A stretch of DNA of 64,000 nucleotides from an uncultured Elusimicrobia bacterium (lineage in GTDB: Bacteria > Elusimicrobiota > Elusimicrobia > 2-01-FULL-59-12), in assembly GCA_964604825.1 (NCBI GenBank), contig CAZSAL010000004.1, positions 11,400-75,399 on the forward strand, in the 5' to 3' direction. Made by a program: the position numbers and the translations under genes. Every line of letters begins with the position of its first letter. Within the stretch, counting starts at the first letter, position 1. This document shows positions 12,820 through 31,555 of the stretch, in pieces. The notes under the pieces were generated by a model. The model did no database searches. It saw only the letters and a program-made list of their open reading frames with translations, and was not told where the DNA came from.

Positions 12820-12831
12820 TGTCGACACTAA

Positions 12832-13251: not shown

Positions 13252-13276
13252 CGATTCATGCAAAGGGGGATGTACT

Positions 13277-13870
13277 ATGAAACACACCAGTAGAATTGCC
13301 ATCGCACTCCTGCTCGCTGGTTTTAGCGCTTGCGCCACCGTAAAGGCACGGCTCGAGAATATTCCGTTAATATGGAAACCGACTTCGGAAATCGACCTTC
13401 CTCCGGGTACGGTAGACACAATCGTTGGGACGAAAATAGAGTTCGACGTATTCAAGGACGTACGCCAGCAGCCGGAGATGATAGCCCAAAACCTCGAAGA
13501 CGCCGTTTCTAAGCCCGTCACGACGCGTGACAATGTTGGACAGTTTGTTAGAACGCATGTTCGCGAAGCCTTTTACAAGGCGGGCTTGAATACAGTGGAT
13601 AGCGATGGCGACGTTATCATCACGGGTGAAATTCGTCAGTTTTTCGTGGACGAAACGACGATTTATAAAGGGACTGTCCTGCTACGCCTAAACGTTCAAA
13701 ACCATGCTGGCGAAAAGTTATGGAGCGGCGTTGCTTCCGGGACTGCAAAGCGCTTTGGCCATTCCTATTCTGCAGAAAACTACTATGAAGTTCTTTCCGA
13801 TTCAGTGCTCAACGCAATATCTTCATTGTTGAGAGATGTGGAATTTCGGAAGGCTTTAGCGCAGAAATAG
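13277..13870 (+). CDS. lipoprotein (lipobox LAGFSAC)
   Basis: Start at MKHTS, preceded by a GGGGGA Shine-Dalgarno sequence. The listed 13100 start overlaps the previous gene and lacks an SD. Confidence 0.45.
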   Translation: MKHTSRIAIALLLAGFSACATVKARLENIPLIWKPTSEIDLPPGTVDTIVGTKIEFDVFKDVRQQPEMIAQNLEDAVSKPVTTRDNVGQFVRTHVREAFYKAGLNTVDSDGDVIITGEIRQFFVDETTIYKGTVLLRLNVQNHAGEKLWSGVASGTAKRFGHSYSAENYYEVLSDSVLNAISSLLRDVEFRKALAQK

Positions 13871-13913
13871 ATGAGAAAGGAACGGCATCCTTCATGACTG
13901 TGAGACATAGCTT

Positions 13914-14669
13914 TTGAAGTTTCGGGTCCTTCAATGGACGGCTTGGGCTCCTGGTGTAACGACTCAGCACGAATGGCTTAAATTCTTCGCCGATACCAGG
14001 CCGCCTCAATCCAGCGGCTCGCCCGATATGTCGGATATCCAGCCCATGCTTCGACGACGCATGAGCCGCCTCACTCGCATGTCAATAGTCGTGGCAGCCG
14101 ACTGTTGCCGCCAGGCTGGCATCTCCGTGAGCGACGTGCGGACGGTGTTCGCTTCGAGGCATGGGGAGATGCAAGTGACTGTCGAACTTCTCAAACAGAT
14201 GGTTGTCGGGTCAACCATATCGCCAATCGACTTTTCCGGTTCGGTTCATCATACGGCACTGGGTTATTTGAGTATTGCTTCGAAAAGCCTAGAACCTATG
14301 CGTGCCGTGGCAGGGGGAGAGGCCTCTTTTTGTTATGGATTTTTGGAAGCTTTAGGCATGTTAGCTGAAACAGACGGGTCTCCGGTTTTACTTATTGCCG
14401 CAGATGACATCGTGCCTGCGCCCTTTGATGACTTCGTGAGAAGGAGCAGTTTTCCTTATGCAGTCGCCTTTTTACTTTCCAGCGCTCGATCCCGACAGGG
14501 CAAATCTTTAACGTTTACTATTCCCTCCGGGTCGCTCAACCAAACGCAACGGAAAAGTGACTCAAAATGGCTGAATATTCCGGCCTTGGACTTTCTATAT
14601 TGGTACTTGAAAAGGAATAATCCTTTAGAATTACGCCTTTCGAAACGGAATTGGCGATGGGAAAAATGA
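13914..14669 (+). CDS. KS-like chain-length-factor / beta-ketoacyl synthase N-terminal-domain protein lacking the canonical active site
   Basis: KS N-terminal fold similarity (thiolase-like); short, about 251 aa. Confidence 0.5.
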   Translation: MKFRVLQWTAWAPGVTTQHEWLKFFADTRPPQSSGSPDMSDIQPMLRRRMSRLTRMSIVVAADCCRQAGISVSDVRTVFASRHGEMQVTVELLKQMVVGSTISPIDFSGSVHHTALGYLSIASKSLEPMRAVAGGEASFCYGFLEALGMLAETDGSPVLLIAADDIVPAPFDDFVRRSSFPYAVAFLLSSARSRQGKSLTFTIPSGSLNQTQRKSDSKWLNIPALDFLYWYLKRNNPLELRLSKRNWRWEK

Positions 14670-15124
14670 CTTTACCCGTATTGGTAGATGAAGTAGTGCC
14701 TCATAAGCGACCGATGTCCCTATTGCGACATGTCGTTGCGCATAATTCACATACCACTATCTGTGACGTACATATTGAAGCTAATTCCCTTTTCAACGAG
14801 AATGGCTGCGTCAGTTCCTGGGTAGGACTAGAATACATGGCCCAAGCGGTGGCAGCTCATGCCGGTATGAAATCGCGTCAACGAGGGGAGTCGCCAGAAA
14901 TCGGTTTTTGGCTCGGAACTCGTAGGGCGGATTTTTTTACGGACCGATATCGCCTGGGTCAGACCTTGCATATTGCCGTGCGACATATCTGGGGAGAAGG
15001 GGATTTGTTTTCATTCGACTGTTCAATCACTGATGCAGGCGATGGACGCCAATTGGCTGTAGCTCAACTAAACGTATTCCGCCCTTCAGAGGCGGAGCTT
15101 GTCCTTTCGAGGAGAACAAAATGA
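14651..15124 (+). CDS. hotdog-fold 3-hydroxyacyl-ACP dehydratase (FabZ/ApeP-like)
   Basis: About 157-aa hotdog-sized protein between the CLF-like KS and FabG, as in APE clusters. Confidence 0.5.
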   Translation: MAMGKMTLPVLVDEVVPHKRPMSLLRHVVAHNSHTTICDVHIEANSLFNENGCVSSWVGLEYMAQAVAAHAGMKSRQRGESPEIGFWLGTRRADFFTDRYRLGQTLHIAVRHIWGEGDLFSFDCSITDAGDGRQLAVAQLNVFRPSEAELVLSRRTK

Positions 15125-15846
15125 AACGCAGAGTCCTTGTGACAGGGGCGAGCGGTGGCATTGGTTGCGCCATTGCTCGGACATTGGCCGATGCTGGGTT
15201 CCATTTGACGCTCCACTATCGTCGCGACCGGCAGTCGGCGGAAAATACGGCGATGGCGATTCGAAAAAACGGGGGACGTCCAAGACTGATACATTTTGAT
15301 GTGACCGATCGAAACGCAAGCCGACATGCTCTTGAACAAGAGATAAAGAAGCATGGCGCATTCTGGGGCGTGGTTTGTAGTACAGGAGTGATCGCCGACG
15401 GCCCATTCCCAGCGATGACCGGATCTGATTGGGATCGAGTCATTCGGACTAATCTTGACGCTTTTTACAATATCCTATCCCCTCTGACTATGCCCATGAT
15501 CCATCTGAAGGATGGCGGGCGTATCGTCACTTTGTCCTCCTTGTCAGGCTTGGCGGGGAATCGCGGGCAGGTTAACTACAGTGCGGCAGAAGCTGGCATC
15601 ATCGGTGCAACGAAAGCTCTTTCCAAAGAACTCGCCAAGCGCCAAATCACCGTCAATAGCGTGGCTCCTGGTTTGATTGAAACTGATTTGATCACACCGG
15701 AGATACGCGAGCAGGTTCTACCGAACATTCCGATGCATCGACTAGGACATCCACAAGAAGTGGCGGCGACCGTGGCATTTCTATTTTCTGAAGGCGCGGG
15801 ATACATAACGGGCCAGGTTCTGTCCGTAAATGGGGGCATCCTGTGA
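15121..15846 (+). CDS. fabG: 3-oxoacyl-ACP reductase (SDR family)
   Basis: TGASGGIGCAIA Rossmann motif; SDR catalytic region YSAAEAGIIGATKAL (YxxxK). Confidence 0.85.
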   Translation: MKRRVLVTGASGGIGCAIARTLADAGFHLTLHYRRDRQSAENTAMAIRKNGGRPRLIHFDVTDRNASRHALEQEIKKHGAFWGVVCSTGVIADGPFPAMTGSDWDRVIRTNLDAFYNILSPLTMPMIHLKDGGRIVTLSSLSGLAGNRGQVNYSAAEAGIIGATKALSKELAKRQITVNSVAPGLIETDLITPEIREQVLPNIPMHRLGHPQEVAATVAFLFSEGAGYITGQVLSVNGGIL

Positions 15847-17090
15847 AACGTCGGGTTGTTGTGACGGGAATGGCCGGGATTTCTCCCATTGGATCTGATT
15901 GGCCCACAGTGCGGAAACATCTGAGAGAGGGCATTTCGGGTGTTTCCTCGATGCCGGAGTGGGTAGGTTGTAAGGGCCTTCAAAGTCATCTAGTCGCAAA
16001 GGCCAAATTCGAGATTCCGCAAGAATGGCATAGAAAACAGATCCGCACAATGGGGCGCGTTGCGCTCATGGCGACTTATACAGCACAGGAAGCCCTTCGC
16101 CAAGCACGGCTACTGGATCATCCCTCACTAACTGACGGATCATGTGGAGTATCATACGGCTCCACAGAAGGTTCGCCGCCTGCAGTCGAAGAATACTTTC
16201 GCAGTCTCGCTATCAAGCGAAGCTTAAAAGGACTCTCACCGTACACCTATATACAGCTGATGAGCCACACATGCGCAGCAAATCTCAGTCAATTTTTCAA
16301 AATTAAGGGCCGTATCATCCCGACTTGTTCCGCGTGTACATCGGGGAGTCAGGGTATAGGGTACGCCTATGAAGCCATTAAAAACGGATATCAACGTGTC
16401 ATGGTCGGCGGGGGCGCCGAAGAACTACACCTGGCTGCAACCGTTGTCTTTGATGTTATGTTCGCGACTTCTACACAAAATCAAAAGCCTACGTCAACGC
16501 CCAGACCATTTGATAAACACCGAGACGGCCTCGTTATCGGTGAAGGGGCTGGAACATTGATTGTGGAAGACTTGGTTCACGCGAGAACCAGAGGCGCTAC
16601 CATTTATGCCGAGTTGGTAGGCTTTGGTACTAATAGCGATGGTGCTCATATTGTAAATCCCAGCATCGACGGTATGGAAGCCGCCATGCGACTTGCGCTT
16701 GACGACGCAAAGCTCCGACCCTCAGGCATCGGGTATGTCAACGCCCACGGCACTGCAACGGAGTTGGGTGATATTGCTGAAACTCAGGCGACTGCTCGAA
16801 TCTTCGGTAAACATATGCCCATTAGCTCTCTGAAGAGCTATATGGGTCATACCCTCGGAGCCTGCGGCGCTTTGGAGGCTTGGATGTCTATCGAGATGAT
16901 GCGAGAAGGATGGTTTGCTCCAACCCTTAATTTACGTGACGTCGACAAGCGTTGTGGCCGTTTGGACTACATTCGAAAGAAGCCTCGGGAGCTAAAAGTG
17001 GACTATGTGATGTCGAATAATTTTGCCTTCGGCGGCGTGAACACTTCACTCATCTTCAGGCGCTGGTCGGGTTCCGGTGGATTACACTGA
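15843..17090 (+). CDS. beta-ketoacyl-ACP synthase I/II (FabB/FabF-like)
   Basis: CSACTSGSQ active-site Cys, HGTATELGD and GHTLGACGA His motifs. Confidence 0.85.
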   Translation: MKRRVVVTGMAGISPIGSDWPTVRKHLREGISGVSSMPEWVGCKGLQSHLVAKAKFEIPQEWHRKQIRTMGRVALMATYTAQEALRQARLLDHPSLTDGSCGVSYGSTEGSPPAVEEYFRSLAIKRSLKGLSPYTYIQLMSHTCAANLSQFFKIKGRIIPTCSACTSGSQGIGYAYEAIKNGYQRVMVGGGAEELHLAATVVFDVMFATSTQNQKPTSTPRPFDKHRDGLVIGEGAGTLIVEDLVHARTRGATIYAELVGFGTNSDGAHIVNPSIDGMEAAMRLALDDAKLRPSGIGYVNAHGTATELGDIAETQATARIFGKHMPISSLKSYMGHTLGACGALEAWMSIEMMREGWFAPTLNLRDVDKRCGRLDYIRKKPRELKVDYVMSNNFAFGGVNTSLIFRRWSGSGGLH

Positions 17091-17101
17091 TTGCCAGAGG
17101 C

Positions 17102-17728
17102 TTGACCGCCGTATTTGCCCTTCACCTCCTGACCGCCGCAGCGATGGCCGCGACCGTGGAACTGATGCCGATGGTCGGATTCCAAGTTAACGGATCGAAG
17201 GATTTGGTAGGCCCGCGCAATGACCGAATGGACCTCAAAAACGTTGCTTTACGAGGAGTCTCAATCGGATATATGAACAAAGATAATGGAGAACTTGAAT
17301 TTTCCTGGACACGAGCGAACAGCTCAGCGCAAATTCAACGATCCGGCGGCTTCCCTTCGGACCAATTTGATGTGAAAATCGACCAATTTCACCTCAATGC
17401 TCTTTACATGTTTAGTGATGATGCCGTACAGCCCTTCATACTGATTGGCGCAGGGGCCACACACCTGGCGCCGGTAACAGACCGCTCACCGACGACCCTA
17501 TTTTCGATGGCACTTGGTGGCGGTGTGAAATGGCTTTGGAACGATTACATTGGCCTCCGGCTGGACGGCAGATGGACTCCAGCCCTTTCACCTCAGGGCA
17601 CGCATTTCTTCTGCGATAACACCGGAGACACGGGATGTTACAGCACGCAAGCCAATTCCTACGCCAGCCATGTTGTCCCCGCACTGCAAAGCTTTGAATT
17701 CACCAGCGGATTGCTCTTAAGGTATTAA
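17102..17728 (+). CDS. outer-membrane beta-barrel protein (OmpW/OmpA-like)
   Basis: Signal peptide, alternating amphipathic strands, C-terminal aromatic residue. Confidence 0.4.
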   Translation: MTAVFALHLLTAAAMAATVELMPMVGFQVNGSKDLVGPRNDRMDLKNVALRGVSIGYMNKDNGELEFSWTRANSSAQIQRSGGFPSDQFDVKIDQFHLNALYMFSDDAVQPFILIGAGATHLAPVTDRSPTTLFSMALGGGVKWLWNDYIGLRLDGRWTPALSPQGTHFFCDNTGDTGCYSTQANSYASHVVPALQSFEFTSGLLLRY

Positions 17729-18960
17729 TCTTTCTGCATTCGAACATGATCCGCGAGCGTCTTAACCGCACGCGCATGCTGTTTAACAAATGGATTAGTG
17801 TCATCCCAGACATATCCCGCCAGTACTGAGCAAATCTGCTTTTTGATTTTCGGGTCTTGTACCTTGGAGAAAAAGATCTCCTGCAAATCCCCGTTATACC
17901 AGCCGGTTACATAGGTCCGGAAAGTATTGATTCCACGCATCATGTAGTCAACATACTCCTTTTGGAAATCGACCTCTCCGCCCTTCAATTTACGCGAAAC
18001 TAACTTTGCCGCCACCGATCCTGACTCCATGGCGAAGGTGACTCCCGAAGAGAACACGGGATCAAGGAATTCCGTCGCATTTCCAACCGTCACATAGCCC
18101 TTATCAAAGAATTTAGTTGATGTAATGGCGTAGCCTTCGATTGTGCGGGGCTCAATGACCATTTCTTGGTCAATAAATCGATCACGTAAGTAACGGGAGT
18201 CCCTAATCAACGCTCGCATGCGATCCGAATTCCCGGAAGGGTACGTTTGAAAAAACTCAGGGCTCCCCACGTAACCAACGGAGGTATTTCCGTTTGAAAA
18301 GGGAATAATCCAAATCCAGACATCGCGCTTATGAACTACGACCGTGATCCTGTTTCCTCCAACACCTTCAGGCCGATGACTGTCTTTCATGTGCGTAAAA
18401 TGTGTTTTTCGAGGATCGAAGCTGGATCGCTTATTTAGACCCAGCATGGTTGGAACGACCCGTCCATATCCACTCGCGTCAATCACGTAGCGAGCACTGA
18501 TTTGCTTCCTGTGCCCGTTTGCATCTCGCAAAGTCGTTACAGACGGCTCATCATCATTGAATTGTATCGAGACGACTTCCATTTCGAATTCTATTTGAAC
18601 GCCTTTCCTGACCACTTCTTCTGCCAAGATCTGGTCAAAGTCAGCACGGGGTACTTGCCACGTCCATGACCAACCTTTCGTGAATTGTTCGGAGAAATTA
18701 AAGTCACAGGCTTTATCATCCATGAAGAATTGGGCACCATACTTCTTCTGAAACCCAGCCTTTTTGACGGCTTCTAGAAGCCCGGTCTCGTCCAAGTGGT
18801 CCATGACCCTCGGCAGGAGGCTCTCGCCTATTACAAATCGTGGGAATTTAGCCTTTTCGATAACCCGCACGTTAAGTCCGCTTTGATGAACGATAGAGGC
18901 AGCGATGCATCCGGCAGGCCCCGCTCCAATTACTAATACCTCTGTCTTTTCAATATCCAT
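17725..18960 (-). CDS. flavin-dependent halogenase
   Basis: N-terminal GAGPAG FAD motif and the WxWxIP signature (VWIWIIP) of flavin-dependent halogenases. Convergent with the cluster. Confidence 0.75.
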   Translation of the reverse strand: MDIEKTEVLVIGAGPAGCIAASIVHQSGLNVRVIEKAKFPRFVIGESLLPRVMDHLDETGLLEAVKKAGFQKKYGAQFFMDDKACDFNFSEQFTKGWSWTWQVPRADFDQILAEEVVRKGVQIEFEMEVVSIQFNDDEPSVTTLRDANGHRKQISARYVIDASGYGRVVPTMLGLNKRSSFDPRKTHFTHMKDSHRPEGVGGNRITVVVHKRDVWIWIIPFSNGNTSVGYVGSPEFFQTYPSGNSDRMRALIRDSRYLRDRFIDQEMVIEPRTIEGYAITSTKFFDKGYVTVGNATEFLDPVFSSGVTFAMESGSVAAKLVSRKLKGGEVDFQKEYVDYMMRGINTFRTYVTGWYNGDLQEIFFSKVQDPKIKKQICSVLAGYVWDDTNPFVKQHARAVKTLADHVRMQKD

Positions 18961-19475
18961 TCGCTCTTTGCATTTTATAAGAGCTGGAAAAGAAATTCTG
19001 AAAATACGTGCATATTATGTTGGCCGAATTAAGGGGATCTTCCTTCCGTATGGCTAGGCCTTTGAGTGAATCCTCCACAAATGAGTATTACATCTTATCT
19101 TGTCAGTGCAGAGGTACAATGATTAAGCCCACCTGAAATCAGACTTCGCAGTATAAGGATCGCGTGAATAAATTCGACAAGGACACCGGATGGACCCAGA
19201 CCAAGGCCATGTCGGCTTGTGGTTGTGGTCACAGGGAGAAGAGCCATCGACCCATCAGCCGGAAATGCAGTTTGTGCGACTGCCAGCAATTCAAGCCCGC
19301 TCAAAAATCGAAAACACATGACCCACGATAGTGTCGCATGGACGGTTCAGCCAGTGTTAACAAGCGCCGTAAAACCGAACCCGTAATTCATCCTATACGG
19401 GTGTATAATCTGGGCTAAATGTGGCTGTTCATCACGATTTATTCTGAGTCGAACAATTCATAAGGTCGAGACAAA

Positions 19476-20699
19476 ATGGAAATACTGATCGCTGTCGGGT
19501 GTTTTACGGCAGGATTTCTTGTGGCGTGGGCGGTGTTCGGTCGTTCGCGAGGAATCCCTCGGGAACAGTATGACAATCTCCTCAAGGAGAAAACGGAAGC
19601 GACCAGCGCGGTTTTGGGGTTAACCGGGAATGTCAGCCGTTTGGAAGCCGAAAAACAGGGGCTTCTGGAAAAACTGAAATCCGATAAGGCGGACCTCGAA
19701 AACATCCAACAGAAATTTGAGGATCGCTTTAAAACTCTTGCGCAGGAAATTCTTGAAGCTCAACAAAAGAAGTTCCAGGAGTCCGGCGAGGCTGGCATCA
19801 AGTCCCTTGTTGATCCGCTTTGGAAACAGCTGAAAGACCTGCAGGAATACGCGATCGAGGCCAAAACCTTGAATCAGGATATGACTAAGGAAACCAAAAG
19901 CCTGGTCACCGCACTGCGCGGGGACTCCACAACGCAGGGACGCTGGGGGGAAATGCAGCTAAACCACATCTTAGATCGTTCAGGCCTCAAGGAAGGTGAA
20001 GGCTATGTGGTTCAAGGGAAGGGCCTTGGGCTCAAAGGGGAAGATGGGGAACTTCAAAAACCGGACGTTATAATCAACATCCCAGATCCCGAGAAACCCA
20101 AGCACTTGATCATCGATTCCAAGGTCTCTCTTACCTCTTACGACGCCTACGTCAATTCGGATGACATGGATGTCAAACAACAATCCATCAAGGAATTTTT
20201 AGTCTCGATAAGAAATCACGTTGATGATCTGGGTGGCAAACGTTACGACCGAAGCGAAAAGCTGAATTCGCCTGATTTCGTCTTAATGTTTATTCCTATT
20301 GAAGGAGCCTTCGCATTGGCCGTCCAATCGGATAAGGACATTTTCGCCGATGCCTGGGAAAAGCACATCGTCATCGCCAGCCCTACCACGCTTTTGGCGA
20401 CCCTGAGAACGGTAGCCGCCCTATGGAGCCAAGAACGGGTCAGCCGCAACGTCCTGGCTATCGCCGAACGAGCAGGCAAGCTGCATGAAAAATTCGCGGG
20501 GTTCCTGGGCGATCTCGAAGAAGTCGGTAAGAAACTCAAAAGTGCCCAATCCAGTTATGATGAAGCGATCAACAAGATCACTGGCCGTGGAGGCCTCACA
20601 TCTCAAGTCGAATCCCTCAAATCCCTGGGTGCCAAAACCTCCAAAACAATCGACGCAAAATTCTTGCCAGTCACTGAAAACGAGAGTGACAAATACTAA
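19476..20699 (+). CDS. rmuC: DNA recombination protein RmuC
   Basis: N-terminal TM, long coiled coil, RmuC C-terminal domain (IIDSKVSLTSYDAY). Confidence 0.8.
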   Translation: MEILIAVGCFTAGFLVAWAVFGRSRGIPREQYDNLLKEKTEATSAVLGLTGNVSRLEAEKQGLLEKLKSDKADLENIQQKFEDRFKTLAQEILEAQQKKFQESGEAGIKSLVDPLWKQLKDLQEYAIEAKTLNQDMTKETKSLVTALRGDSTTQGRWGEMQLNHILDRSGLKEGEGYVVQGKGLGLKGEDGELQKPDVIINIPDPEKPKHLIIDSKVSLTSYDAYVNSDDMDVKQQSIKEFLVSIRNHVDDLGGKRYDRSEKLNSPDFVLMFIPIEGAFALAVQSDKDIFADAWEKHIVIASPTTLLATLRTVAALWSQERVSRNVLAIAERAGKLHEKFAGFLGDLEEVGKKLKSAQSSYDEAINKITGRGGLTSQVESLKSLGAKTSKTIDAKFLPVTENESDKY

Positions 20700-20706
20700 T
20701 GCAGCT

Positions 20707-22434
20707 ATGCAGTTAAAGTACATAGATCAATTCCTAGCGGCCAATGGCCTCGCAAACCCATCTTTGGCTGTCCTTCGTTCAACGGGGGACCGTTATGATG
20801 CGATGCTTCTTCAGCCTGACTCTGAAGTTGTATGTCGGAATGATTTTATCGGTAATGCCGACCCCACAACAGCGGATAAGAAGCACTTGGCTTTCTTTCA
20901 GCTCGCCTCCTCTAAAGCAGTCCACCTCGCTATAACTCCAGAATACTCGACTCCTTGGCAAACCGTTGAGAAACTTATTAATCGGTCAGTTATGCCTTCG
21001 GACGATGCGCTATGGGTGATTGGCTGTGAAGCCATAACCCCTGCTGCACTATCAACATTTCGGCAAGAGCATCCAAGCGTGACTTGGATAATTCCTGAAT
21101 CGCCACAGCGTGGTACACGTACCTTTTTAGATCCGCTGTTGTACCTGTTCAAAACACGGACTCAAGCTGGAGATAGCAAGATCGTTAGCCTGGTGCAATT
21201 CAAGACTCAAGAAATGGGGGGAGATCGTGACGCCTTCCTGGAGCGGAATAACTTAATCAAGGGTGATACGATCTTTATTCTAAGAAACGATGAGGGTTCC
21301 ATCTACCTGTTCACGCTTATTTGTTCAGATGCTTTGAGTTTTACGCCCAGAGACCTTAAGAACCCAGAACAACCGCATCTTATATTGCACATCCAACTTA
21401 ACCCCGACCCACGACATCCGGCCATCCAGAAATACCGTAAGGACTTATTTGACACAAAATCGGACAACAAGGAAATTCTATGCTTGAACTGGGCTAGAAA
21501 CATCCGTGTTCAAGGCAAAGACGATCCTTTAAACGAGATTTCGGGATCGGCTATATACACCAAGTCCCCCGAACTCGATACAAGGGACGCATCCGTATTG
21601 AACAACCATGCGGGTGGTCTATATTTGACGCATTGGAAATCGGCTCGAGGAAATGTTTTTTTTCTCAACTATATTGAGTCTGTGTTCTACTTTTCATCAA
21701 CACGCCCATCACAAACGGAAGCTCCCCCTCAAACCGCAACTAGAACGGGACCTCAGATGATGTCGACTTTTCGCTGGGATTCTCGCGGACTTGATTGGCT
21801 GCAGGTCTCAGAGGCTGATAGCGGCATAGCAGGGCTTTGCAGTCAATTCGATCTGGCGCAATTTAAACGGACCGCCGCATCGGATAATCCTCTAGAATTC
21901 GAGCGCCTGCTAACGCTTTCATGTGGGCTGATAAAAGGCACTACATGGAACCCATCGCCAGACTTTTTGCGAATATTTGAGATCGACGACAAAGAGCTTG
22001 TTTTTAGAGTGGCCTTTTGCCAGGACCCACACCCAGATGCTAGCGCTTTCAGAGGTCGCACACTCAATCACTTGAAGGCATTGCGTGACATCTTGGCTGA
22101 TCCTAGCCAATTCCCGATGACAATTGCTGACTTGGCTGGTAATTGTGAGATCAAATACATGTCTGCAGAAGCACCATTGAACCTATTCTCGGTCACGACG
22201 GGAGATCCCGCATTCGTTGCTTATGTTGGTCACGAAGGATCGCTTGCCGATAAGCGACAGCTTTACGATAAGATGGTCACATTCTGCTCTGCCAAGGATA
22301 ATGCCCGGAGTCGGGTTGTTTTGTGGTACCACGTCGGTCTTAGCATAGACAAAGTATTCGATCAGACTGCTCCAACTGTTGCCAAGGACTTAACTGAACC
22401 ACCTCAATCGATCGTCAAGGATTCTAACCCATGA
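20707..22434 (+). CDS. hypothetical 575-aa protein; N-terminal about 300 aa weakly resembles the nitrilase/CN-hydrolase (amidase) superfamily; candidate effector partner of the downstream SMC-like ATPase
   Basis: Start set at ATG 20707, just after the rmuC stop. The listed ORF start 20485 lies inside rmuC. Possible E-K-C triad: ITPEY around aa 79, SKIVSLV around aa 158, LICSDALSF around aa 206. Confidence 0.55.
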   Translation: MQLKYIDQFLAANGLANPSLAVLRSTGDRYDAMLLQPDSEVVCRNDFIGNADPTTADKKHLAFFQLASSKAVHLAITPEYSTPWQTVEKLINRSVMPSDDALWVIGCEAITPAALSTFRQEHPSVTWIIPESPQRGTRTFLDPLLYLFKTRTQAGDSKIVSLVQFKTQEMGGDRDAFLERNNLIKGDTIFILRNDEGSIYLFTLICSDALSFTPRDLKNPEQPHLILHIQLNPDPRHPAIQKYRKDLFDTKSDNKEILCLNWARNIRVQGKDDPLNEISGSAIYTKSPELDTRDASVLNNHAGGLYLTHWKSARGNVFFLNYIESVFYFSSTRPSQTEAPPQTATRTGPQMMSTFRWDSRGLDWLQVSEADSGIAGLCSQFDLAQFKRTAASDNPLEFERLLTLSCGLIKGTTWNPSPDFLRIFEIDDKELVFRVAFCQDPHPDASAFRGRTLNHLKALRDILADPSQFPMTIADLAGNCEIKYMSAEAPLNLFSVTTGDPAFVAYVGHEGSLADKRQLYDKMVTFCSAKDNARSRVVLWYHVGLSIDKVFDQTAPTVAKDLTEPPQSIVKDSNP

Positions 22435-25400
22435 ATCTTGCAAGCCTAGAAACCTTCCTAGATAAGAATTTTCAAGTCGTGGAGCATCGTAAGTCTGAAC
22501 GGATAATCACCGCCCACTTGATTCGTCGGGAATGCGTTGTGGCAATGTACTTTTTCGATTACAGTGAACATATCTTGGAACCCGGGTTTAACCTCTCGAC
22601 CTTCCAAGAAGACAATATAGCTAAGGAATATTACAAGCAGAGTTCATGGCTGCAATGGAATATGAATCTCATTTTTGTAATGACACCAGAGCACTTTCAT
22701 AATATCGCTGGGTCACCCACGCAAATCTCAATCGAAGCCGATCGTTTGTACTGCCGCAAGCATATTTGCTCTGTCACAGACCTCGACTCATTATTCCCGC
22801 TATCAAAGCCGATCTTTTCTGACAGCCAAGGGATGAGTTCTGACTTGACCAGCCGTTGGCATGAGAAATTAGCCGGCGCTGGACTTCATGATGTGTTGTC
22901 GGAGGCCCCATTTGCGCAAGTCATTCGGGAAATCATCGAGCCGCCATCCGACAAGGTTCCTTCTCCTCAGATTGACCTTAGCACAAGAGATGTCAGCGAC
23001 AACGCTGGATTAAAAGTGCAGCTGGATAGGCTAGATATTAGGAACTTTCGCGTGAAACCATCCCACAAAGCCTATAAATTAGGCATGGTTAATATTATTT
23101 GTGGTCCAAATGGCGTCGGTAAAACGTCTTTTCTCGAGGCCATCGAACTATGTCTATGCGGCCGAACGTTCCGCGGTGGCGCGCAACTCGGAAGCGATAT
23201 AGCTTACTGGGTTCGAGGTTTAGGACAATCGCTTACACTTGCGCTCGATGACAACAGGCTCTATCAGAGTCGCGATCTGCGCTGGTACAACAATCGGTAT
23301 TCTAGGGGGAATAATCTCTCTCATAGTTTTAATAAATTCAATTTCTACGACACAGATCAGGCCTATAGGCTCTCATACAAGACCGACCCCAATGAAATCC
23401 GGTCTGCCTTTGCAAGTCTGGCGCTGGGAGAACGAGTCAACTTTTTCGACGAACGCATTCGCCGTGTGCGTCATGAACTCGGAGATGAACTAATTCGCCG
23501 ACAGGCTAGGATAAAGGCTCTTGAGGCCCAGATTCAACAAAATGAATTAGAAATTAAGGAGCTATCGCTGGGCCTGCCCCCACCCGAGCCAATACTGGAG
23601 GTTCTAACGAATGATCTCCGCCGCATTTTATGGAAAGGATCTATTCCTCTCGAGAACGACAATAATCTATCGACGATAGAAGCGCCGCTCCTTGACGCTC
23701 GATCTAAACTCCGAGAATTAATGCAAATCCTAAACCCTTGGGTTTCGCCTCTTTCCAAGAAAGCGATCGCCGATGTAGATACCAAGCTCAGTAAAGTTCT
23801 TTCGAAAGTCGCAGAATTGGAAGCCCGAATTGAGAATTCCTCTAAATCAGGTAATGCGACGCAGACCGCGATCAACGGAAAGCTCCGGACTGTTGAATTG
23901 TTAAAACGCGCATTGGAGTATGCACGCATTGGGCCCTGGAACCGCTTTTCAGGTGTAGACGAACGCATTGCTAAGCTGGAAAACACTTTGACTCGCCTAG
24001 ATGTTGTTCTTCAACTCATATCGGACTGCGATACGACACTTTTCCAAGACAATCATACGCCCGTCTTGACATACGTACAACAGCTGACTTCAAAATGCGA
24101 AGCCTTTCAAGCTGAATTAGATCGCATGAGCAAAGCAATTAACAATTTACGTAAAACATTAGACCACCTGGGTCAACTGAGTTCCGATCTACGCAGAATT
24201 GGTTTAGAGATCATCTCTCTCAAGCCGGATTCAGAGGAGTGTCCGCTTTGCCATGCAAATCATCCAAAGGGGGAGCTGAAGGTTCATGTAGAGCAGGTGG
24301 ATTCGAGGCTAGCGACCTTGCCCGATTTGGAAAAGCTAAATGCGCAATACAGTAAGCTAACTACTAATTTAAAAGATGCCCGACAACTACTTGATTCTGC
24401 CCGGATGATTCAACGCGCAATCCGCGAGTATTCTTCAGCTCCGAACAGTGACCGAGTGGATTTCGTGGCGGCTATCGCTTCATTGAAGGGGATTTTACCA
24501 GCTCGTGAAATTGCCGCAAACGAGCATGGCCGGGAGGTCGCATTTCGGCAATCTTTAGCGGCTAAGAGGCTTTCAGAAGATGACCTACGGACCATCGCTG
24601 CCGACTTAACGGAAATGAAGGACGGGTTTCAATTGCATTTGCAAACTGAAGAATCTCTGTCTGTACAACTCAATAACTTGAATGAAGAAATACTGACACT
24701 CCGTCAAGAACTGACAAAGCATGGCGCTGAGCGTCAGCGTGATCAGCAAGCTTTGCTAACATTGTGTCAGGATGTGTTAATCGAGGAAACCGATACCCAG
24801 AAATCACTTCTTATCATACGCTCAAGATCCACAGCGTGCCGACGTGCTATTGGGAATCTTCAGGATATAGAGCAGGCAATTGACGTCTCAGACGACATGA
24901 TCCTGACTGATTTACTAAATGTTACTGAACGTGCCTTAGGATACCTCGGCAAACTCAACCAACTCAGGACTGAAGCCCAAAGCCGGACAAAAGCGTTGCA
25001 ATTTCGAAGCAACGCAGTTGCAACGCTCAAGGCACAACATTTGGCAGAAAGCGAACCTCTCCGCCGGATAAAGAATGCGCTCGAACCACTAGAATATATT
25101 GTTCAACACGACAACAAGGAACAAGCGTTAGAAACATTCTTCGCTGCCTACAGGGATAGAATTCTGCAAATATTTCGGACAATGCATTCCCCGAGGGAAT
25201 TCGATGACATCATGATAAGCGATAGTACGGTCACTTTGCGCAATCTAAATGGGAATATTTCTGGTTTAAACAATATTAGCACCGGCCAACGAGCGGCGCT
25301 CGCACTTTCCATATTTCTGTCCCTCAATGCCTCTCTGCAAGATGGCCCATCAATGATTCTCATTGATGATGCTGTTGCCAATGTGGATGACATTAATTGC

Positions 25401-25544
25401 GTAGCCTTTTTAGATTTTCTAAGGGAATTTGCGGTTACAAGGAAGAGACAGCTGTTCTTTGCAACAGCAAATACGAGACTCGCAAATCTATTTACTAAGA
25501 AGTTTTCTTTCTTGGGTGACGAATTCGTAAATATTACCCTATGA
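22431..25544 (+). CDS. Rad50/SbcC-like SMC-family ATPase with a central zinc hook and an N-terminal extension of about 200 aa of unknown fold
   Basis: Walker A GPNGVGKT near aa 225. CPLC zinc-hook near aa 603, flanked by long coiled-coil sequence. C-terminal signature-like STGQRA plus Walker B MILIDD. ATGA overlap with the upstream gene. Confidence 0.75.
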
Positions 25545-25620
25545 GACCCTCGATCAAGTATTTAGAAGAATTGGCGCTCATCATTTGTTCGAATCGCCGT
25601 ACATCCTTAATAGGTATCTG

Positions 25621-27192
25621 ATGCCAAACAACTTAGCCGAACTCGAAATGAAACTCTGGGACGCCGCAGATGAGCTTCGGGCCAATTCCAAGCTTAGTGC
25701 TGCCGAGTATTCCACCCCGGTGCTGGGGCTCATCTTCCTCCGGTTTGCAGACCACAAGTTCACCGTAGCCGAAAAGGAACTATCCAAGACCGGTACGGGC
25801 CGCCGCACCATCGGGAAAACTGACTACCAAGCCCGGGGTGTGCTTTACCTACCCCCCGAAGCACGATTCTCCCGATTGATCGCCCTCCCGGAGGGAGAGA
25901 ATATTGGCAAAGCCCTTAACGATGCCATGAAGGTGATCGAAGCCGACAACGAGGACCTCAGGGGCATCCTTCCGAAAACCTACACGCAATTTGAGAACAA
26001 GATGCTTGTCGAGCTTCTGAAACTTATGAACTCGATCCCTATGGATATCGAAGGGGACGCCTTTGGAAAAATTTACGAATACTTCCTTGGGGAATTTGCC
26101 TTGACCGAGGGCAGGGATGGAGGAGAATTCTTTACGCCGACCCCTATCGTAAAGCTCATCGTCGAGGTCATCGAGCCCTTTCACGGCAAGATCTATGACC
26201 CCGCTTGTGGTTCTGGGGGCATGTTTGTGCAGTCTGCCCGATTTGTGGAAAACCACAAAAAGAGAGCATCCGATGAGATAAGCGTCTACGGGCAGGAAAA
26301 AACGGCAGAAACAGTACGGCTCTGCAAAATGAACCTCGCTGTCCATGGACTTTCAGGCGACATTCGAGAAGCCATCTCGTATTACGACGATCTCCATAAT
26401 TCGCCGGGACAGTTTGATTTCGTAATGGCAAATCCACCCTTTAACGTGGATCGTGTAGATAAAGAGCGCATCAAGGATGATAAGAGGCGATTCCCATTCG
26501 GGATGCCTTCCATCGACAATGCCAACTTTTTGTGGATTCAACTCTTTCTGAGCTCCTTAAACAAAACGGGAAGAGCAGGATTTGTCATGACTAACACAGC
26601 CGCAGATGCACGATCTTCTGAAATGGAGATTCGGAAGAAGATTATTACGTCGAATGTAGTTAACGCAATCGTTTCTGTTGGCCCAAATATGTTCTACACG
26701 GTCATTCTCCCCTGTGATCTTTGGTTTTTTGACAAAGCCAAGTCTAAGACGAAACAATCCGGCACTATCCTATTCCTTGATGCCCGTGATATATATCACC
26801 AGATTGATCGATCCCATAGAGATTGGACAGATGACCAAATTGGCTTTCTAGGAAATATCGTGCGACTCTATCGGGGTGAATCTTTGGATTTTAAACAAGG
26901 CGGGAGAGATACTGAATTGAAGATCTTGGAGTTATTCGGTAAAAAGCCAAAGTATACGGACATCCCCGGTCTTTGCAAGGTGGTCACGCTGAAGGATGTT
27001 GAAACTCAGAATTGGTCCTTGAGTCCGGGCAGTTATGTGGGGGTCGATTCAGGAATGAAGTTTAATCAAGACCGATTTGGCCAAAGCTTTGAGGTCTTAA
27101 CTCAGCAATTCGTTCAACTTACTTCAGAGGCACATCTTCTCGAATCCACAATTGTTCGAAACGTGAAGACTATCCTCAAGACTCTAGAATGA
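25621..27192 (+). CDS. hsdM: type I restriction-modification system methyltransferase subunit HsdM
   Basis: N6-adenine MTase motif IV NPPF (MANPPFN), typical HsdM N-terminus. An alternative start at 25585 is in the same frame. Confidence 0.85.
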
Positions 27193-28397
27193 AGCTTTCC
27201 GATTACGTAGCCTTCAATCCTCGTGTTTCTTTGGAAAAAGGAGTGAGGGCTAACTTTGTCTCAATGGATGCGATTAGGCCGGGGCTTCGTTATGTATACC
27301 CCGACCAGGAAAGAATAGTGAATGGCTCCGGGTCAAGATTTGTTCCAGGAGATATTCTCTTTGCACGCATCACGCCATGCTTAGAGAATGGAAAGATCGC
27401 TCAATATTCCGGTGATTCTAATGGTTTTGGCTCAACTGAGTTCTTCGTACTCCATGCGATCGAATCTTCAACCGATCCGGCATATCTCTATTACTTCTCG
27501 CAGAAATCTGATTTACGAGCCGCCGCTGCTAAGAGTATGACAGGGGCGTCGGGTCGACAAAGGGCAAACATCGACGCTTTAAAGGAATATCCATGCGTAT
27601 TCCCATCTTTGCGTGAGCAACGTTCTATTGCCGCCGTTCTTACGGCCTATGATGAGCTTATCGATAATACCCTCAAACGTATAAGAATTCTGGAAAAGAT
27701 CGCGCATTCTATCTTTCGAGATTGGTTCGTGTTATATCGCTTTCCTGGTCACGAAACTCAACGGTTTACCAAATCACCTCTAGGCCGAGTTCCAACAAAG
27801 TGGTCAGTTAAAAAGGCGACAGAGGCCATTTTTGTAAATCCTAAAACAGTGGTGAGAAAGCGTAAATCTATCCCTTTTGTCTCAATGAGTTGTCTTTCAG
27901 ATGATTCAATGATTATTCGTGACGGAGAGACTAGAAGTGCAGCTTCTGGGCCAAAGTTTCAGAAGGGCGATACGCTTTTTGCTCGCATTACTCCTTGCCT
28001 AGAAAACGGCAAAACAGGGTTTGTTCAATTTTTAGTGGGTGACGAGCCTGCTTGTGGATCAACTGAATTCATCGTCTTGCGTTCAAAGACCTTGTGTCCA
28101 GAATATGTGTACTTATTGGCACGTACAGATGAATTCCGCGGCAACGCCATTAAGAGTATGACCGGAGCAACCGGACGCCAGCGAGTCAGGGAGTCCTGTT
28201 TTGACAACTTTCTGATAGCTCATCCTGACACAGATACTTTGAAGAACTTCCATGATTGTGTAAGCCCAATCTTTCACCAAATATACTTGTTATTCTTGAG
28301 AAATCAGAATCTTCAACGGACCCGAGATTTGATCTTGCCCTGTCTTATCTCTGGCCAACTCGGACTGAGCCAAATGGAGAACCCCACCAAATCATGA
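27189..28397 (+). CDS. hsdS: type I R-M specificity subunit HsdS (two target-recognition domains)
   Basis: Internally duplicated conserved region: [12 protein letters not shown] ... GSTEF appears twice. ATGA overlaps on both sides. Confidence 0.8.
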
Positions 28398-31300
28398 CCC
28401 TTTCCGGCTATTCCGAGGATCGCCTTATACAGGCCCCGACCGTTGAGCTATTCGGCAAGCTGAAATGGGACACGGCAGATTGTATGGGCGAGTTCGATAG
28501 CGGAAAAAGCACGCTTGGCAGGGAATCGAAAGGCGACGTCGTGCTGGTCAAGAAATTGCGCCCCGCCCTTCGCAAACTGAACCCGGACCTGCCAGAAGAG
28601 GCCATCTCCCTTGCCATCGAAGAGATCACCCGTGACCGGAGCGTGATGAGCCCGGTTGCCGCCAACAAGGAAATCTACGAGGCGTTGAAAACCGTGGTGA
28701 AGGTTTCTTGCCGGAGCCAGGAGGCGCAGGAAGAGGAGACGTACACGGTCAACGTGGTCGATTGGCAGACGCCAGCAAACAACGATTTCTTCCTTGCGTC
28801 GCAGTTTTGGGTGGCAGGGGATATGTATACCCGTCGTGCGGACTTGGTCGGTTTCGTCAACGGGCTCCCCCTGGTTTTCATCGAATTGAAGGCCGCTCAC
28901 CGCAACTTGGAAGAAGCCTACCGGGGCAACTTGCGGGACTACCGAACAGCCATCCCGAAACTCTTTTGGTACAACGCCTTCAACGTCCTATCCAACGGTA
29001 TCGACAGCCGGATCGGCACGATCACGAGCGATTGGGAGCACTTCGCCGAATGGAAGAAGATCAACAGCGAGGGCGAAGAGGGCATTATTTCCTTGGAAAC
29101 GATAATCAGGGGAGTCTGTGATAAGGAAAAGCTCCTTGATTTGGTCGAGAATTTCACCCTATTCGTCGAAGCGAAGGGCGGTCCGGTCAAGATGTTGGCC
29201 AAGAACCATCAGTATCTTGGCGTAAACAATGCCGTTCAGGCGTTGACCCAGATCAAAGAGAAAAAGGGCCGTCTCGGCGTCTTTTGGCATACGCAGGGAA
29301 GCGGGAAGAGCTATTCAATGGTGTTCTTTTCGCAGAAGGTCCTCCGGAAGAAGCCAGGTAATTGGACGTTCCTTGTCGTAACCGATCGTAAAGAGCTGGA
29401 CACTCAGATTTATAGGAACTTCGCTAGTGCCGGGGCGGTCACGGAACAGGAAGCGCAGGCGACTAGCGGGGCTCACCTGAAACAGCTTCTCAGGGAAGAT
29501 CATCGCTTTGTTTTTACCTTGATCCAGAAGTTCGGGACGGACGGGGGCGCAGCCTTTCCCGTGCTTTCGGAGCGTTCCGACATTATTGTAATCACCGACG
29601 AAGCACACCGATCGCAATACGATACCCTGGCCTTGAATATGCGGACGGCATTACCCCAGGCCGCCTTCATCGCTTTTACTGGGACACCTCTCATCGTCGG
29701 CGAAGAGAAGACCAAGGATGTCTTCGGCGATTACGTCAGTGTCTACAACTTCCGGCAATCCGTGATCGATGGGTCTACCGTCCCGCTTTACTACGAGAAC
29801 CGCATCCCGGAGCTTCAGCTTACTAACCAGCATCTGAACGAGGATATGGAAACATTGCTTGAGGCCACCGACTTGGACGAGAACCAGCAGCGACGCCTCG
29901 AGCAGGAGTTCAGCCGGGAATACCACTTGATCACCCGCGAGGATCGCCTGAAACGGATAGCGGAAGACGTGGTCGAACACTTCACGGGCCGGGGCTTTCA
30001 GGGCAAGGCGATGGTCATCAGCATCGACAAAGCTACCGCCGTTAAGATGTATGACCGAGTCAAAACCCGTTGGCCGATTCATTTAGCCAAGCTGCGCCAG
30101 GAACTTCAAAGCACCCAGGATGCCGAACAGAAAGCCGATTTGGAAAGACGGATCACCTTCATGCAAACGACGGACATGGCGGTCGTCGTATCACAGGGGC
30201 AGAACGAGGTTGAGGATTTGAAAGCAAAAGGGGTGGACATTACGCCTCACCGCTATCGTATGGTCCACGAAGATTTAGAAACCAAGTTCAAGACTTCCGA
30301 AGACCCGCTACGACTCGTTTTCGTTTGCGCCATGTGGATGACGGGCTTTGATGTCCCGTCATGTTCAACGATCTACCTGGACAAGCCGATGCGGAACCAC
30401 ACGCTTATGCAGACGATCGCCCGGGCTAACCGTGTATGCGGCGAGAAACTGAACGGCTTGATCGTGGATTACGCCGGCGTCTTTCGCAGTCTGCAGAAAG
30501 CCTTGGCTATCTACGGCACAGGGGTAGGCGGCACGGCGACCCAAGGCGATATGCCCGTTCAGGCCAAGCAGGAACTTATTGAAGGATTGCGCCACCACGT
30601 GGCACTGACGGTCGATCTATGCGAATCAAAGGGCGTAGACCTGTCGAAGATTATTACGAGCACGGCGTTCGAGCGTGTTAAGCAGATGGAGGATGCCCGG
30701 GAGACCATGATCGCTGACGACCAGACAAAGAAGCAGTTTTTGGCTTCTGCGACTTCTATTCACCGCCTTTTCAAAGCCATCCTTCCTGACCCGGCCGCAA
30801 AGGAATTGTCGCCACAATGTTCGGCTATCGTCAGGCTGGCCGACAGCATCCGTTCGTTGGCAGGACCCGTCGATATCTCTGAAGTCATGCAGGATGTCGA
30901 AGAATTGTTGGACGATTCCGTGGCGTCCGCCGGGTACGTGATCCGGGATCGGGGGCCAGAGAAGCGGATCGACTTATCTAAGATTGATTTTGAAGCCCTT
31001 CAGAAGAAGTTTGCTGCCGGATACAAACGGACGGAGATTGAACGGCTGAAGGCTTTGCTTCAAGGGCGACTCGTTGTCCTTGTGCAAAAGAATCGCACGA
31101 GGATGGACTTCCTTGAACGCTTCCAGAAGATGATGGATGAATACAACGCCGGGGCGGTCAACATCGATGAGTTCTTCAAGCAATTGGTTGCCTTCTCCCG
31201 GCAGTTGGACGACGAAGACAAGCGGGGGATTACCCAGAATTTAAGCGAAGAAGAGCTGGCCGTCTTCGATCTGCTCACAAAGCCGGAGCCAAAGCTCACC

Positions 31301-31555
31301 AAGAAGGCCGAAGTGGAAGTGAAGAAGGTAGCGAAGCAATTATTAGAGAAATTAAAAGCTGAAAAACTCGTTCTCGACTGGCGGAAACGTCAGCAATCCC
31401 GGGCCGCTGTCCGGCTATGTATCGAAGAAGTTCTTGACCAACTACCGCAGGATCTCTATCCCAAGCCAGTCTATGCCAAAAAATGCGACCTAGCCTATCA
31501 GCACATCTACGAAGCTTACTATGGAAGTGGCGCAAGCATCTATCAGACGGCATGA
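28394..31555 (+). CDS. hsdR: type I R-M restriction endonuclease/helicase subunit HsdR
   Basis: SF2 helicase motifs including DEAH (VITDEAHRSQ). Start ATG 28394 overlaps the hsdS stop (ATGA). The listed start 28256 is internal to hsdS. Confidence 0.85.
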   Translation: MTLSGYSEDRLIQAPTVELFGKLKWDTADCMGEFDSGKSTLGRESKGDVVLVKKLRPALRKLNPDLPEEAISLAIEEITRDRSVMSPVAANKEIYEALKTVVKVSCRSQEAQEEETYTVNVVDWQTPANNDFFLASQFWVAGDMYTRRADLVGFVNGLPLVFIELKAAHRNLEEAYRGNLRDYRTAIPKLFWYNAFNVLSNGIDSRIGTITSDWEHFAEWKKINSEGEEGIISLETIIRGVCDKEKLLDLVENFTLFVEAKGGPVKMLAKNHQYLGVNNAVQALTQIKEKKGRLGVFWHTQGSGKSYSMVFFSQKVLRKKPGNWTFLVVTDRKELDTQIYRNFASAGAVTEQEAQATSGAHLKQLLREDHRFVFTLIQKFGTDGGAAFPVLSERSDIIVITDEAHRSQYDTLALNMRTALPQAAFIAFTGTPLIVGEEKTKDVFGDYVSVYNFRQSVIDGSTVPLYYENRIPELQLTNQHLNEDMETLLEATDLDENQQRRLEQEFSREYHLITREDRLKRIAEDVVEHFTGRGFQGKAMVISIDKATAVKMYDRVKTRWPIHLAKLRQELQSTQDAEQKADLERRITFMQTTDMAVVVSQGQNEVEDLKAKGVDITPHRYRMVHEDLETKFKTSEDPLRLVFVCAMWMTGFDVPSCSTIYLDKPMRNHTLMQTIARANRVCGEKLNGLIVDYAGVFRSLQKALAIYGTGVGGTATQGDMPVQAKQELIEGLRHHVALTVDLCESKGVDLSKIITSTAFERVKQMEDARETMIADDQTKKQFLASATSIHRLFKAILPDPAAKELSPQCSAIVRLADSIRSLAGPVDISEVMQDVEELLDDSVASAGYVIRDRGPEKRIDLSKIDFEALQKKFAAGYKRTEIERLKALLQGRLVVLVQKNRTRMDFLERFQKMMDEYNAGAVNIDEFFKQLVAFSRQLDDEDKRGITQNLSEEELAVFDLLTKPEPKLTKKAEVEVKKVAKQLLEKLKAEKLVLDWRKRQQSRAAVRLCIEEVLDQLPQDLYPKPVYAKKCDLAYQHIYEAYYGSGASIYQTA

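Follow-up and report, generated by a model that had tools for sequence, protein, structure and literature searches.

Does an operon that joins a predicted C-N hydrolase to a Rad50-like ATPase serve DNA repair or immunity? The question is raised by two genes in a 64,000-nucleotide stretch of DNA from an uncultured Elusimicrobia bacterium (GenBank assembly GCA_964604825.1, contig CAZSAL010000004.1, positions 11,400 to 75,399), hereafter the window. Gene A (20707 to 22434) encodes a protein of 575 amino acids (aa) and gene B (22431 to 25544) an ABC-type ATPase of 1037 aa; both genes, and those of the block that surrounds them, lie on the plus strand. A preliminary description, made from the sequence alone, had put the pair forward as Lamassu-like or as a new defense candidate, leaving the choice between a divergent Lamassu subtype and a distinct system. 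Matches to LmuB profiles, a fused Middle Component 1 (MC1) module, and the genomic context place the pair in Lamassu, as a divergent member of its long, MC1-type branch and not as a distinct system. We consider it quite probable that A and B form a two-gene Lamassu (ABC-3C) defense system of the long, Rad50-like, MC1-type kind, in which MC1 is fused to LmuB and the effector is of the nitrilase type.

Coding sequences of the pair

The open reading frame (ORF) calls and the junction sequence agree with the ATGA coupling of the two genes that had been noted earlier: the junction reads CC-ATG-A, with the TGA stop of A overlapping the ATG of B by 4 bp. The frame of gene A is already open from 20485, yet the stretch from there onward overlaps the preceding gene, rmuC (19476 to 20699). 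Residues 1 to 36 counted from the ATG at 20707 are kept in homologues, with L20, L23, Y30, and Q36 invariant or nearly so, and the start at 20707 is therefore sound. Homologue searches place both proteins in large, conserved families, which is more than chance would give.

Gene B as a long, Rad50-like LmuB

The motifs of gene B are those of Rad50/SbcC architecture, and the Walker A near aa 225, the mid-protein CPLC, the STGQRA, and the MILIDD of the preliminary description are all where it had them. The Walker A GPNGVGKT (23103 to 23126; aa 225 to 232; G225, N227, G230, K231, and T232 invariant) is followed by a zinc-hook CPLC in the middle of the coiled-coil arm (24240 to 24251; aa 604 to 607; C604, P605, and C607 invariant), the sole CxxC anywhere in the protein, and then by an ABC signature-like STGQR (25278 to 25292; aa 950 to 954; S950, G952, Q953, and R954 invariant) and a Walker B MILIDD of the hhhhDD type (25353 to 25370; aa 975 to 980). 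In an alignment of 19 B relatives of 1007 to 1056 aa, D979 is invariant and D980 nearly so, and the Walker A, exactly one CPxC, S.GQ[RK], and hhhDD are all kept in 44/44 full-length B relatives from genomes. The arms (aa 346 to 600 and 611 to 890) have an E/K/R/Q/L/A fraction of 0.50 to 0.55, compared to 0.39 in the heads. The H-loop position (25443 to 25472; aa 1005 to 1014), assigned by position only, carries FFATAN without a histidine, and FFATAN is the consensus of the family. The missing histidine, together with a Walker B ending in DD instead of DE, suggests that ATP hydrolysis by gene B is slow, as discussed for other LmuB proteins.

Profile searches point in the same direction. PADLOC LmuB model PDLC03859 matches B across aa 195 to 1023 (E 4.5e-38), three further PADLOC LmuB models match as well (E 1.4e-29, 3.2e-21, and 1.3e-19), and LmuB models also match distant B relatives. 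Pfam SMC_N scores 45.2 bits against a cut-off of 40, whereas B does not pass the NCBIfam Rad50 equivalogs (19.5 to 43 bits versus cut-offs of 700 to 1000) and lies far below the RecF equivalog as well; the closest PDB sequences are head fragments of Rad50 and RecF and nothing else. Haudiquet et al. describe the "long" LmuB as a protein of ~800 aa with an hhhhDD Walker B and a single CxxC, and B has all three features, since its LmuB portion without the N-terminal extension is 842 aa. By its profiles and motifs, gene B is assigned as the LmuB of the long, Rad50-like Lamassu branch.

The N-terminal extension as a fused LmuC

An extra N-terminal domain of about 200 aa had been suggested to be a fused LmuC-like module, and comparison across the family bears this out. 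The module spans aa 1 to 195 of B (22431 to 23015). Pfam MComp1 (PF20289) matches 7/19 B homologues at E<=0.01 (best E 1.6e-6) and is precomputed as a domain on two relatives, P0122 and P0123; PADLOC LmuC matches 2/16 isolated N-terminal modules (best E 1.5e-8); and in Methanosarcina sp. KYL-1 the MC1-like module sits on a separate polypeptide from the LmuB core. In the Lamassu literature, MC1-type LmuC pairs with a large LmuB (800 to 1000 aa) and with LmuA proteins bearing C-terminal domains (CTDs) CTD1 to CTD5, a Rad50/Mre11-like sub-family. These matches within the family identify the first ~195 aa of B as a predicted fused LmuC of type MC1.

The AlphaFold2 (AF2) model of aa 1 to 200 has a confident core over aa 1 to 122 (predicted local distance difference test [pLDDT] 82 to 94) and then a poorly predicted linker with short helices at 139 to 149 and 161 to 169, the first of which bears the invariant W143. 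D43, W76, E102, R109, and K110 are also invariant. A profile search of PDB sequences with the module gave noise only. The canonical D...(D/E)xK arrangement is missing: D43 stands at the end of a strand, E102 in a helix, and K110 eight residues farther on. A role of the module in DNA binding or docking thus appears more likely than catalysis.

The Methanosarcina sp. KYL-1 locus (L002/L010; L002:2908-11466) encodes the same system in an alternative architecture. Its gene order is a 1687-aa TPR-LmuB-core protein, a 586-aa nitrilase-type effector, and a 560-aa module-TPR protein. The 1687-aa protein has an LmuB-like ABC core from which the mid-arm is deleted (profile positions 290 to 544, hook included), and the 560-aa protein fuses the MC1-like module (E 3e-39 to our profile) to TPR repeats.

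Gene A as a predicted nitrilase-superfamily effector

Gene A belongs to a family of 119 homologues of ~575 aa from bacteria and archaea. Its AF2 model (pLDDT 92.6, predicted template modeling score [pTM] 0.91) divides into a head of aa 1 to 337 (20707 to 21717), with the four-layer alpha-beta-beta-alpha fold of the nitrilases (C-N hydrolases), and a CTD of aa 338 to 575 (21718 to 22434), a mixture of helices and strands predicted at high pLDDT that is presumed to serve in docking or oligomerization. Four residues of the head stand on the secondary-structure elements expected for the Glu-Lys-Glu-Cys tetrad of nitrilases: the predicted catalytic Glu79 (ITPEY; codon 20941 to 20943) toward the end of strand 74-82, the predicted catalytic Lys166 (VQFKT; 21202 to 21204) right after strand 157-165, a predicted second catalytic glutamate, Glu179 (21241 to 21243), in helix 178-182, and the predicted nucleophile Cys206 (LICSD; 21322 to 21324) between strand 200-205 and helix 208-211, in the position of a nucleophile elbow. 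All four, along with P78 and Y80 among others, are invariant across 77 A homologues, and the tetrad is also kept in a haloarchaeal homologue on a DL31 plasmid at ~23% identity. Of the nitrilase-like E-K-C pattern proposed from the bare sequence, the glutamate of ITPEY and the cysteine of LICSD stand, whereas the lysine of SKIVSLV (K157) gives way to the conserved K166. Fold matches of the head do not discriminate between substrates.

Searched by itself, the CTD profile recovers 379 representative clusters in a set of 1.84 billion proteins. Each of the 150 CTD matches listed is either a protein of this ~575-aa architecture or a fragment of one, which indicates that the domain is dedicated to the nitrilase-type head. 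PADLOC LmuA model PDLC03850 matches 3/77 A homologues (E 2.8e-8) in a region that may lie in the head or in the CTD. Gene A of the window has no match in Pfam, PADLOC, NCBIfam, or PDB sequences; profile checks of both proteins, which the preliminary description had called for, identify B as LmuB and assign A to no unrelated housekeeping family. On the strength of the structural model, gene A is taken to be an LmuA-like effector with a C-N hydrolase head and a CTD, encoded directly upstream of B.

Distribution and coinheritance of the pair

A scan of species-representative genomes with an alignment of 10 closer gene A sequences recovered 59 loci, which are spread over Methanosarcina and upward of a dozen bacterial phyla. 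Enough downstream sequence was available in 50 of these to be informative, and a full-length fused B stands beside A in 44 of the 50: both genes are intact and on the same strand in 41 cases, A is frameshifted in 2, and B is inverted in 1. The remaining informative loci have a decayed B (4 loci) or A alone (2 loci); decayed or frameshifted copies in several loci are typical of accessory genes. Distance matrices of A and B are closely correlated (Mantel r = 0.966 over 44 pairs, with 0/999 permutations as high). The pair is also carried by pPNAP01, a conjugative IncP plasmid from Polaromonas, and by plasmids of haloarchaea; a search of phage genomes did not find it. A third conserved gene was considered and rejected, as no neighbor family occurs in more than 4 loci. 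Together, A and B form one coinherited unit.

One locus of a Planctomycetia metagenome-assembled genome (L012:1272-12529) carries a C-terminally shortened effector homologue of 544 aa immediately behind the hsdS and hsdR genes of a type I system, with only small ORFs and no LmuB-like ATPase downstream; this effector is probably a remnant left after loss of the ATPase.

Proposed mechanism

By analogy with Cap4-type Lamassu complexes, which have been solved by cryo-electron microscopy and biochemistry, a likely course of action for the pair can be outlined. In those complexes an LmuB dimer with LmuC sequesters monomeric LmuA via its C-terminal domain, DNA ends are bound by one head and LmuC, and an ATP-dependent rearrangement liberates LmuA, which needs to form a tetramer to be active; in the view of the authors, the same logic could serve nonnuclease effectors whose activity depends on oligomerization. 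In the system described here, the sensor would be a dimer of B joined through its single zinc hook, with MC1 fused at the LmuB N-terminus. In uninfected cells this dimer would hold one A monomer by its CTD, keeping the enzyme inactive. The ATPase heads and MC1 would then bind DNA ends or hairpins arising from replicating phage or plasmid DNA, ATP-driven engagement of the heads would free A, and the freed A would oligomerize. Active A would then attack a molecule that is abundant and essential, most likely a small metabolite or, alternatively, a protein side chain, and hydrolyze an amide-type C-N bond in it, whereupon the cell would stop and the infection would be aborted. Enzymes of the nitrilase superfamily need oligomerization for activity, and for this reason a nitrilase effector would fit a model of release followed by oligomerization.

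Genomic context

The pair lies in a block, rmuC-A-B-hsdM-hsdS-hsdR (19165 to 31546 by blastn against a related contig, L066), which is coinherited and is described here as context only. The rmuC gene ends 7 bp before A; hsdM (25621 to 27192) begins 76 bp after B and is followed by hsdS (27189 to 28397) and hsdR (28394 to 31555), and genes for a relaxase, TrbC, VirB3, and VirB4 lie downstream of hsdR. In L066, whose effector is 88% identical, the block is shared at 78 to 84% DNA identity except for the hsdS recognition domains, and the flanks are unrelated. DNA homology between the two contigs is lost precisely across the hsdS target-recognition region (window 27041 to 28320), and this loss, with hsdM and hsdR at 78 to 84% identity, indicates that the type I R-M systems of the window and of L066 likely differ in sequence specificity.

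The adjacency reported earlier, with the pair 5' of hsdMSR and between rmuC and a conjugative element, holds in the window and does not extend beyond this lineage. Among the 59 distant loci, rmuC is near the pair in none and type I R-M-like genes are near it in only ~3 (L012, L013, and L037), and type I R-M and rmuC were rejected as obligate partners, neither being conserved beyond close relatives. The rmuC and hsdMSR genes are lineage-specific co-resident island genes and not components of the system. The defense-island setting that had been proposed for the pair does recur: type III R-M genes lie directly upstream of it in two distant loci (L021 and L022), Wadjet JetC/JetD genes are nearby in L029 and L035 and Shedu in L003, and further neighbors include ResIII helicases, nSTAND3, a CAP12/Pycsar-effector TIR domain (PF10137), and integrases. 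With defense and mobility genes around it and no neighbor family recurring in more than four loci, the pair is an autonomous module that settles in defense islands.

Other neighbors are of interest in their own right. A DUF2130 gene directly abuts the pair, in the same orientation, at L014:6709-7992, L015:6715-7989, L026:9957-11234, and L031:12744-14216, that is, in 4/103 immediate neighbors of the pair; RmuC takes this place in the window and in L066, and the similarity of RmuC to DUF2130 is confined to a weak, collinear match at the C-terminus (E 0.008). The RmuC or DUF2130 gene product might act as an accessory nuclease, or its place in the island might be due to chance. In four Bacteroidota genomes (L007:3900-7978, L038:3623-7852, L039:3713-7941, and L040:3640-7880), an unannotated pair of genes encoding proteins of ~1083 and ~315 aa, with no Pfam match, stands immediately 5' of the effector gene in the same orientation and may be another defense system.

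Farther out in the window, the G+C content rises from ~0.47 (20 to 28 kb) to 0.55-0.61 past ~32 kb, and the genes for the relaxase, TrbC, VirB3, and VirB4/TrbE start where it rises; the region from ~31600 to 64000 suggests an integrated conjugative element or a plasmid-derived segment beside the defense block. Upstream of rmuC, window positions ~9900 to 18960 encode several ketoacyl synthases, an ApeP-like dehydratase, a short-chain reductase, and a flavin-dependent tryptophan-halogenase-like enzyme, a set of genes reminiscent of clusters for aryl-polyene or polyketide-type lipids.

Alternative explanations

Several points weigh against assigning the pair to Lamassu with a nitrilase-type effector. 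No member of the A family (0/77 homologues) has a Pfam domain, CN_hydrolase included, and a profile of the family finds no nitrilase among PDB sequences, only noise; the nitrilase assignment draws on predicted structure and residue conservation and would be visible only at the level of the fold. The CTD raises a similar difficulty: Pfam families of ABC-3C CTDs match 0/77 A members at E<=0.1, and no solved LmuA was matched in a PDB profile search of the CTD or by Foldseek on the full effector model; the structure prediction suggested in the preliminary description supports a nitrilase fold for the head and leaves the CTD without a match to that of LmuA. The window proteins themselves are below threshold, with B scoring 23.3 bits on MComp1 against a cut-off of 27.3 and PADLOC reporting neither an LmuC nor an LmuA match, and the LmuC and LmuA assignments are carried by bridging through sequence relatives in the family. 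The solved Lamassu mechanisms, moreover, all come from the short branch (CTD7/CTD12, with MC3 or no LmuC), and one paper on the long branch suggests that the effector binds near the heads.

The tight packing of the block invites a reading in which rmuC, A, B, hsdM, hsdS, and hsdR make up one composite system, in which, for example, a Lamassu senses ends made by restriction or by RmuC and escalates the response to cell death. The six genes follow one another on one strand with a 7-bp gap, a 4-bp overlap, a 76-bp gap, and two more 4-bp overlaps, the entire block is conserved in L066 despite unrelated flanks, RmuC-like DUF2130 abuts the pair in four distant loci, and it has been proposed in print that Lamassu can escalate other defenses. 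There is also no convincing terminator between the block genes, although the promoter and terminator scans stayed at background level and so provide no argument for or against a composite system. The distant loci tell against it, since rmuC is absent there, type I R-M is rare, no neighbor family recurs in more than four loci, and on plasmids and in many genomes A and B occur by themselves; we therefore regard a composite system as unlikely. Less likely again is that the N-terminal module of B is an active nuclease of the restriction-endonuclease fold, which would make B an SbcCD-like nuclease-ATPase able to cut invading DNA on its own, with A as a regulator or second effector. The invariance of D43, E102, R109, and K110 is what such a nuclease would show, but these residues lack the canonical D...(D/E)xK arrangement, MC1 is found in Lamassu systems that have other dedicated effectors, and the predicted catalytic tetrad of A, none of whose residues varies, speaks for A as the enzyme on which selection acts.

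That the pair is a housekeeping module for DNA repair or metabolism, in which a paralogue of SbcC/Rad50 works with an amidase outside immunity, is the reading to which we give least credence, and we find it hard to sustain. It has in its favor that source databases label B "DNA repair exonuclease SbcCD ATPase subunit," that the nearest solved sequences are Rad50 heads, and that the gene upstream, rmuC, is associated with recombination. The preliminary description had seen no Mre11/SbcD-type phosphoesterase next to the pair and had named a canonical SbcC with an SbcD nearby as a finding that would overturn its proposal. The gene list has no Mre11/SbcD gene within 10 kb on either side of the pair, the GNH[DE] phosphoesterase motif occurs in none of the ORFs of at least 150 aa across the window, and no phosphoesterase is present among ten representative neighbors scanned from loci of the pair. 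With this partner missing and the Rad50 models failed (e.g., 43 versus 700 bits, where LmuB models score much better), canonical SbcCD was rejected. The spread of the family is likewise patchy, with 379 representative clusters reaching across distant phyla and plasmids, and pseudogenized copies and defense or mobile neighbors speak against a housekeeping role.

Comparison with known systems

The Lamassu reading, to which we return, sets the pair closest to the long, sub-family-1 systems. It shares with them an LmuB part of ~840 aa with an hhhhDD motif, a single CxxC hook, and a middle component of type MC1, as well as an effector gene that comes first and encodes an enzymatic head followed by a CTD, with C-N hydrolase among the heads listed for these systems. 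Unlike in long Lamassu, the middle component is fused to the LmuB N-terminus, giving two genes rather than three, and the effector CTD matches none of the Pfam CTD families. Type I Lamassu of Bacillus (LmuA-LmuB) is also a two-gene operon with an effector followed by an SMC-like ATPase, and the LmuB2:LmuA1 sequestration model proposed for it may carry over. Type I, however, belongs to clade S of the short Lamassu systems and has lost LmuC, which the present pair retains as a fused domain, and its LmuB is short (~600 aa) with a Walker B that is not hhhhDD, whereas that of gene B is long and of the hhhhDD type. The Type I effector Cap4 (DUF4297) has no match among the window proteins in Pfam or PADLOC; in its place the model predicts an enzyme of the nitrilase fold.

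The resemblance to SbcCD and Mre11-Rad50 extends to the ABC head, the long coiled coil, the CxxC zinc hook, and the nearest solved sequences, and Lamassu has been proposed to descend from SbcCD. The pair differs in having no phosphoesterase, in failing the Rad50 equivalogs, in its predicted nitrilase-fold partner, and in an accessory and mobile distribution.

For the effector, a parallel is found in DRT1 and DRT11 (UG1/UG5). The nitrilase domain of DRT1 is an abortive-infection effector activated by tetramerization, and that of DRT11 is required; in both, as predicted for gene A, the presumed abortive-infection effector is a domain of the nitrilase superfamily whose catalytic tetrad is intact, controlled in DRT1 by its oligomeric state. 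In those systems, however, the sensor is a protein-primed reverse transcriptase with its DNA adduct rather than an SMC-like ATPase, and the nitrilase is fused to the sensor, whereas gene A encodes a separate protein that could be released. Within the wider nitrilase superfamily (Nit2 omega-amidase, aliphatic amidases, the glutaminase domain of NAD synthetase, Nta1, and Lnt), gene A shares the motif contexts hhhhPE, K, and hhhCxD, with spacings of 87 (Glu-Lys), 13 (Lys-Glu), and 40 (Lys-Cys) residues. It is only 9 to 17% identical to these proteins, its head is not recognized by Pfam CN_hydrolase, and it has ~50 extra N-terminal aa, a 240-aa CTD, and linkage to an SMC-like ATPase rather than to a metabolic operon.

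The effector class itself has been catalogued, since a 2023 review that cites Millman 2022 and Krishnan 2020 names C-N hydrolase as one of the LmuA effector heads. In the Lamassu literature covered, which does not include the original description of ABC-3C (Krishnan et al. 2020), no nitrilase or amidase effector has been studied in detail or tested experimentally and an LmuC-LmuB fusion is not mentioned; literature searches for Lamassu or LmuB together with amidase found nothing. The pair is a new member of the known Lamassu family, of a known effector class, and within that literature its fusion of LmuC to LmuB stands apart.

Implications

Lamassu is present in roughly 10 to 15% of prokaryotic genomes, and mechanistic work on it has so far dealt with nuclease-armed systems of the short type, to which A and B add a compact, two-protein representative of the long, Rad50-like branch. 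Pfam, NCBIfam, and PADLOC all miss the window effector, and source databases call the ATPase "SbcC," from which it follows that censuses of defense systems based on these profile sets likely miss this subtype. A broader proposal, which we advance tentatively and hold with less confidence than the Lamassu assignment, is that the pair is a minimal two-protein, Rad50-like Lamassu that kills by a new immune chemistry, in which the C-N hydrolase, once released and activated by oligomerization, would destroy an essential amide metabolite or deamidate a key protein, by a substrate logic that DRT1 and DRT11 may share. MC1, which combines a fold like that of restriction endonucleases with acidic and basic residues that do not vary, would in that case be a reader of DNA ends or a second nuclease. 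Once found, the substrate of the gene A C-N hydrolase would reveal a new killing chemistry for abortive infection and could account for the nitrilase domains found in DRT1 and DRT11.

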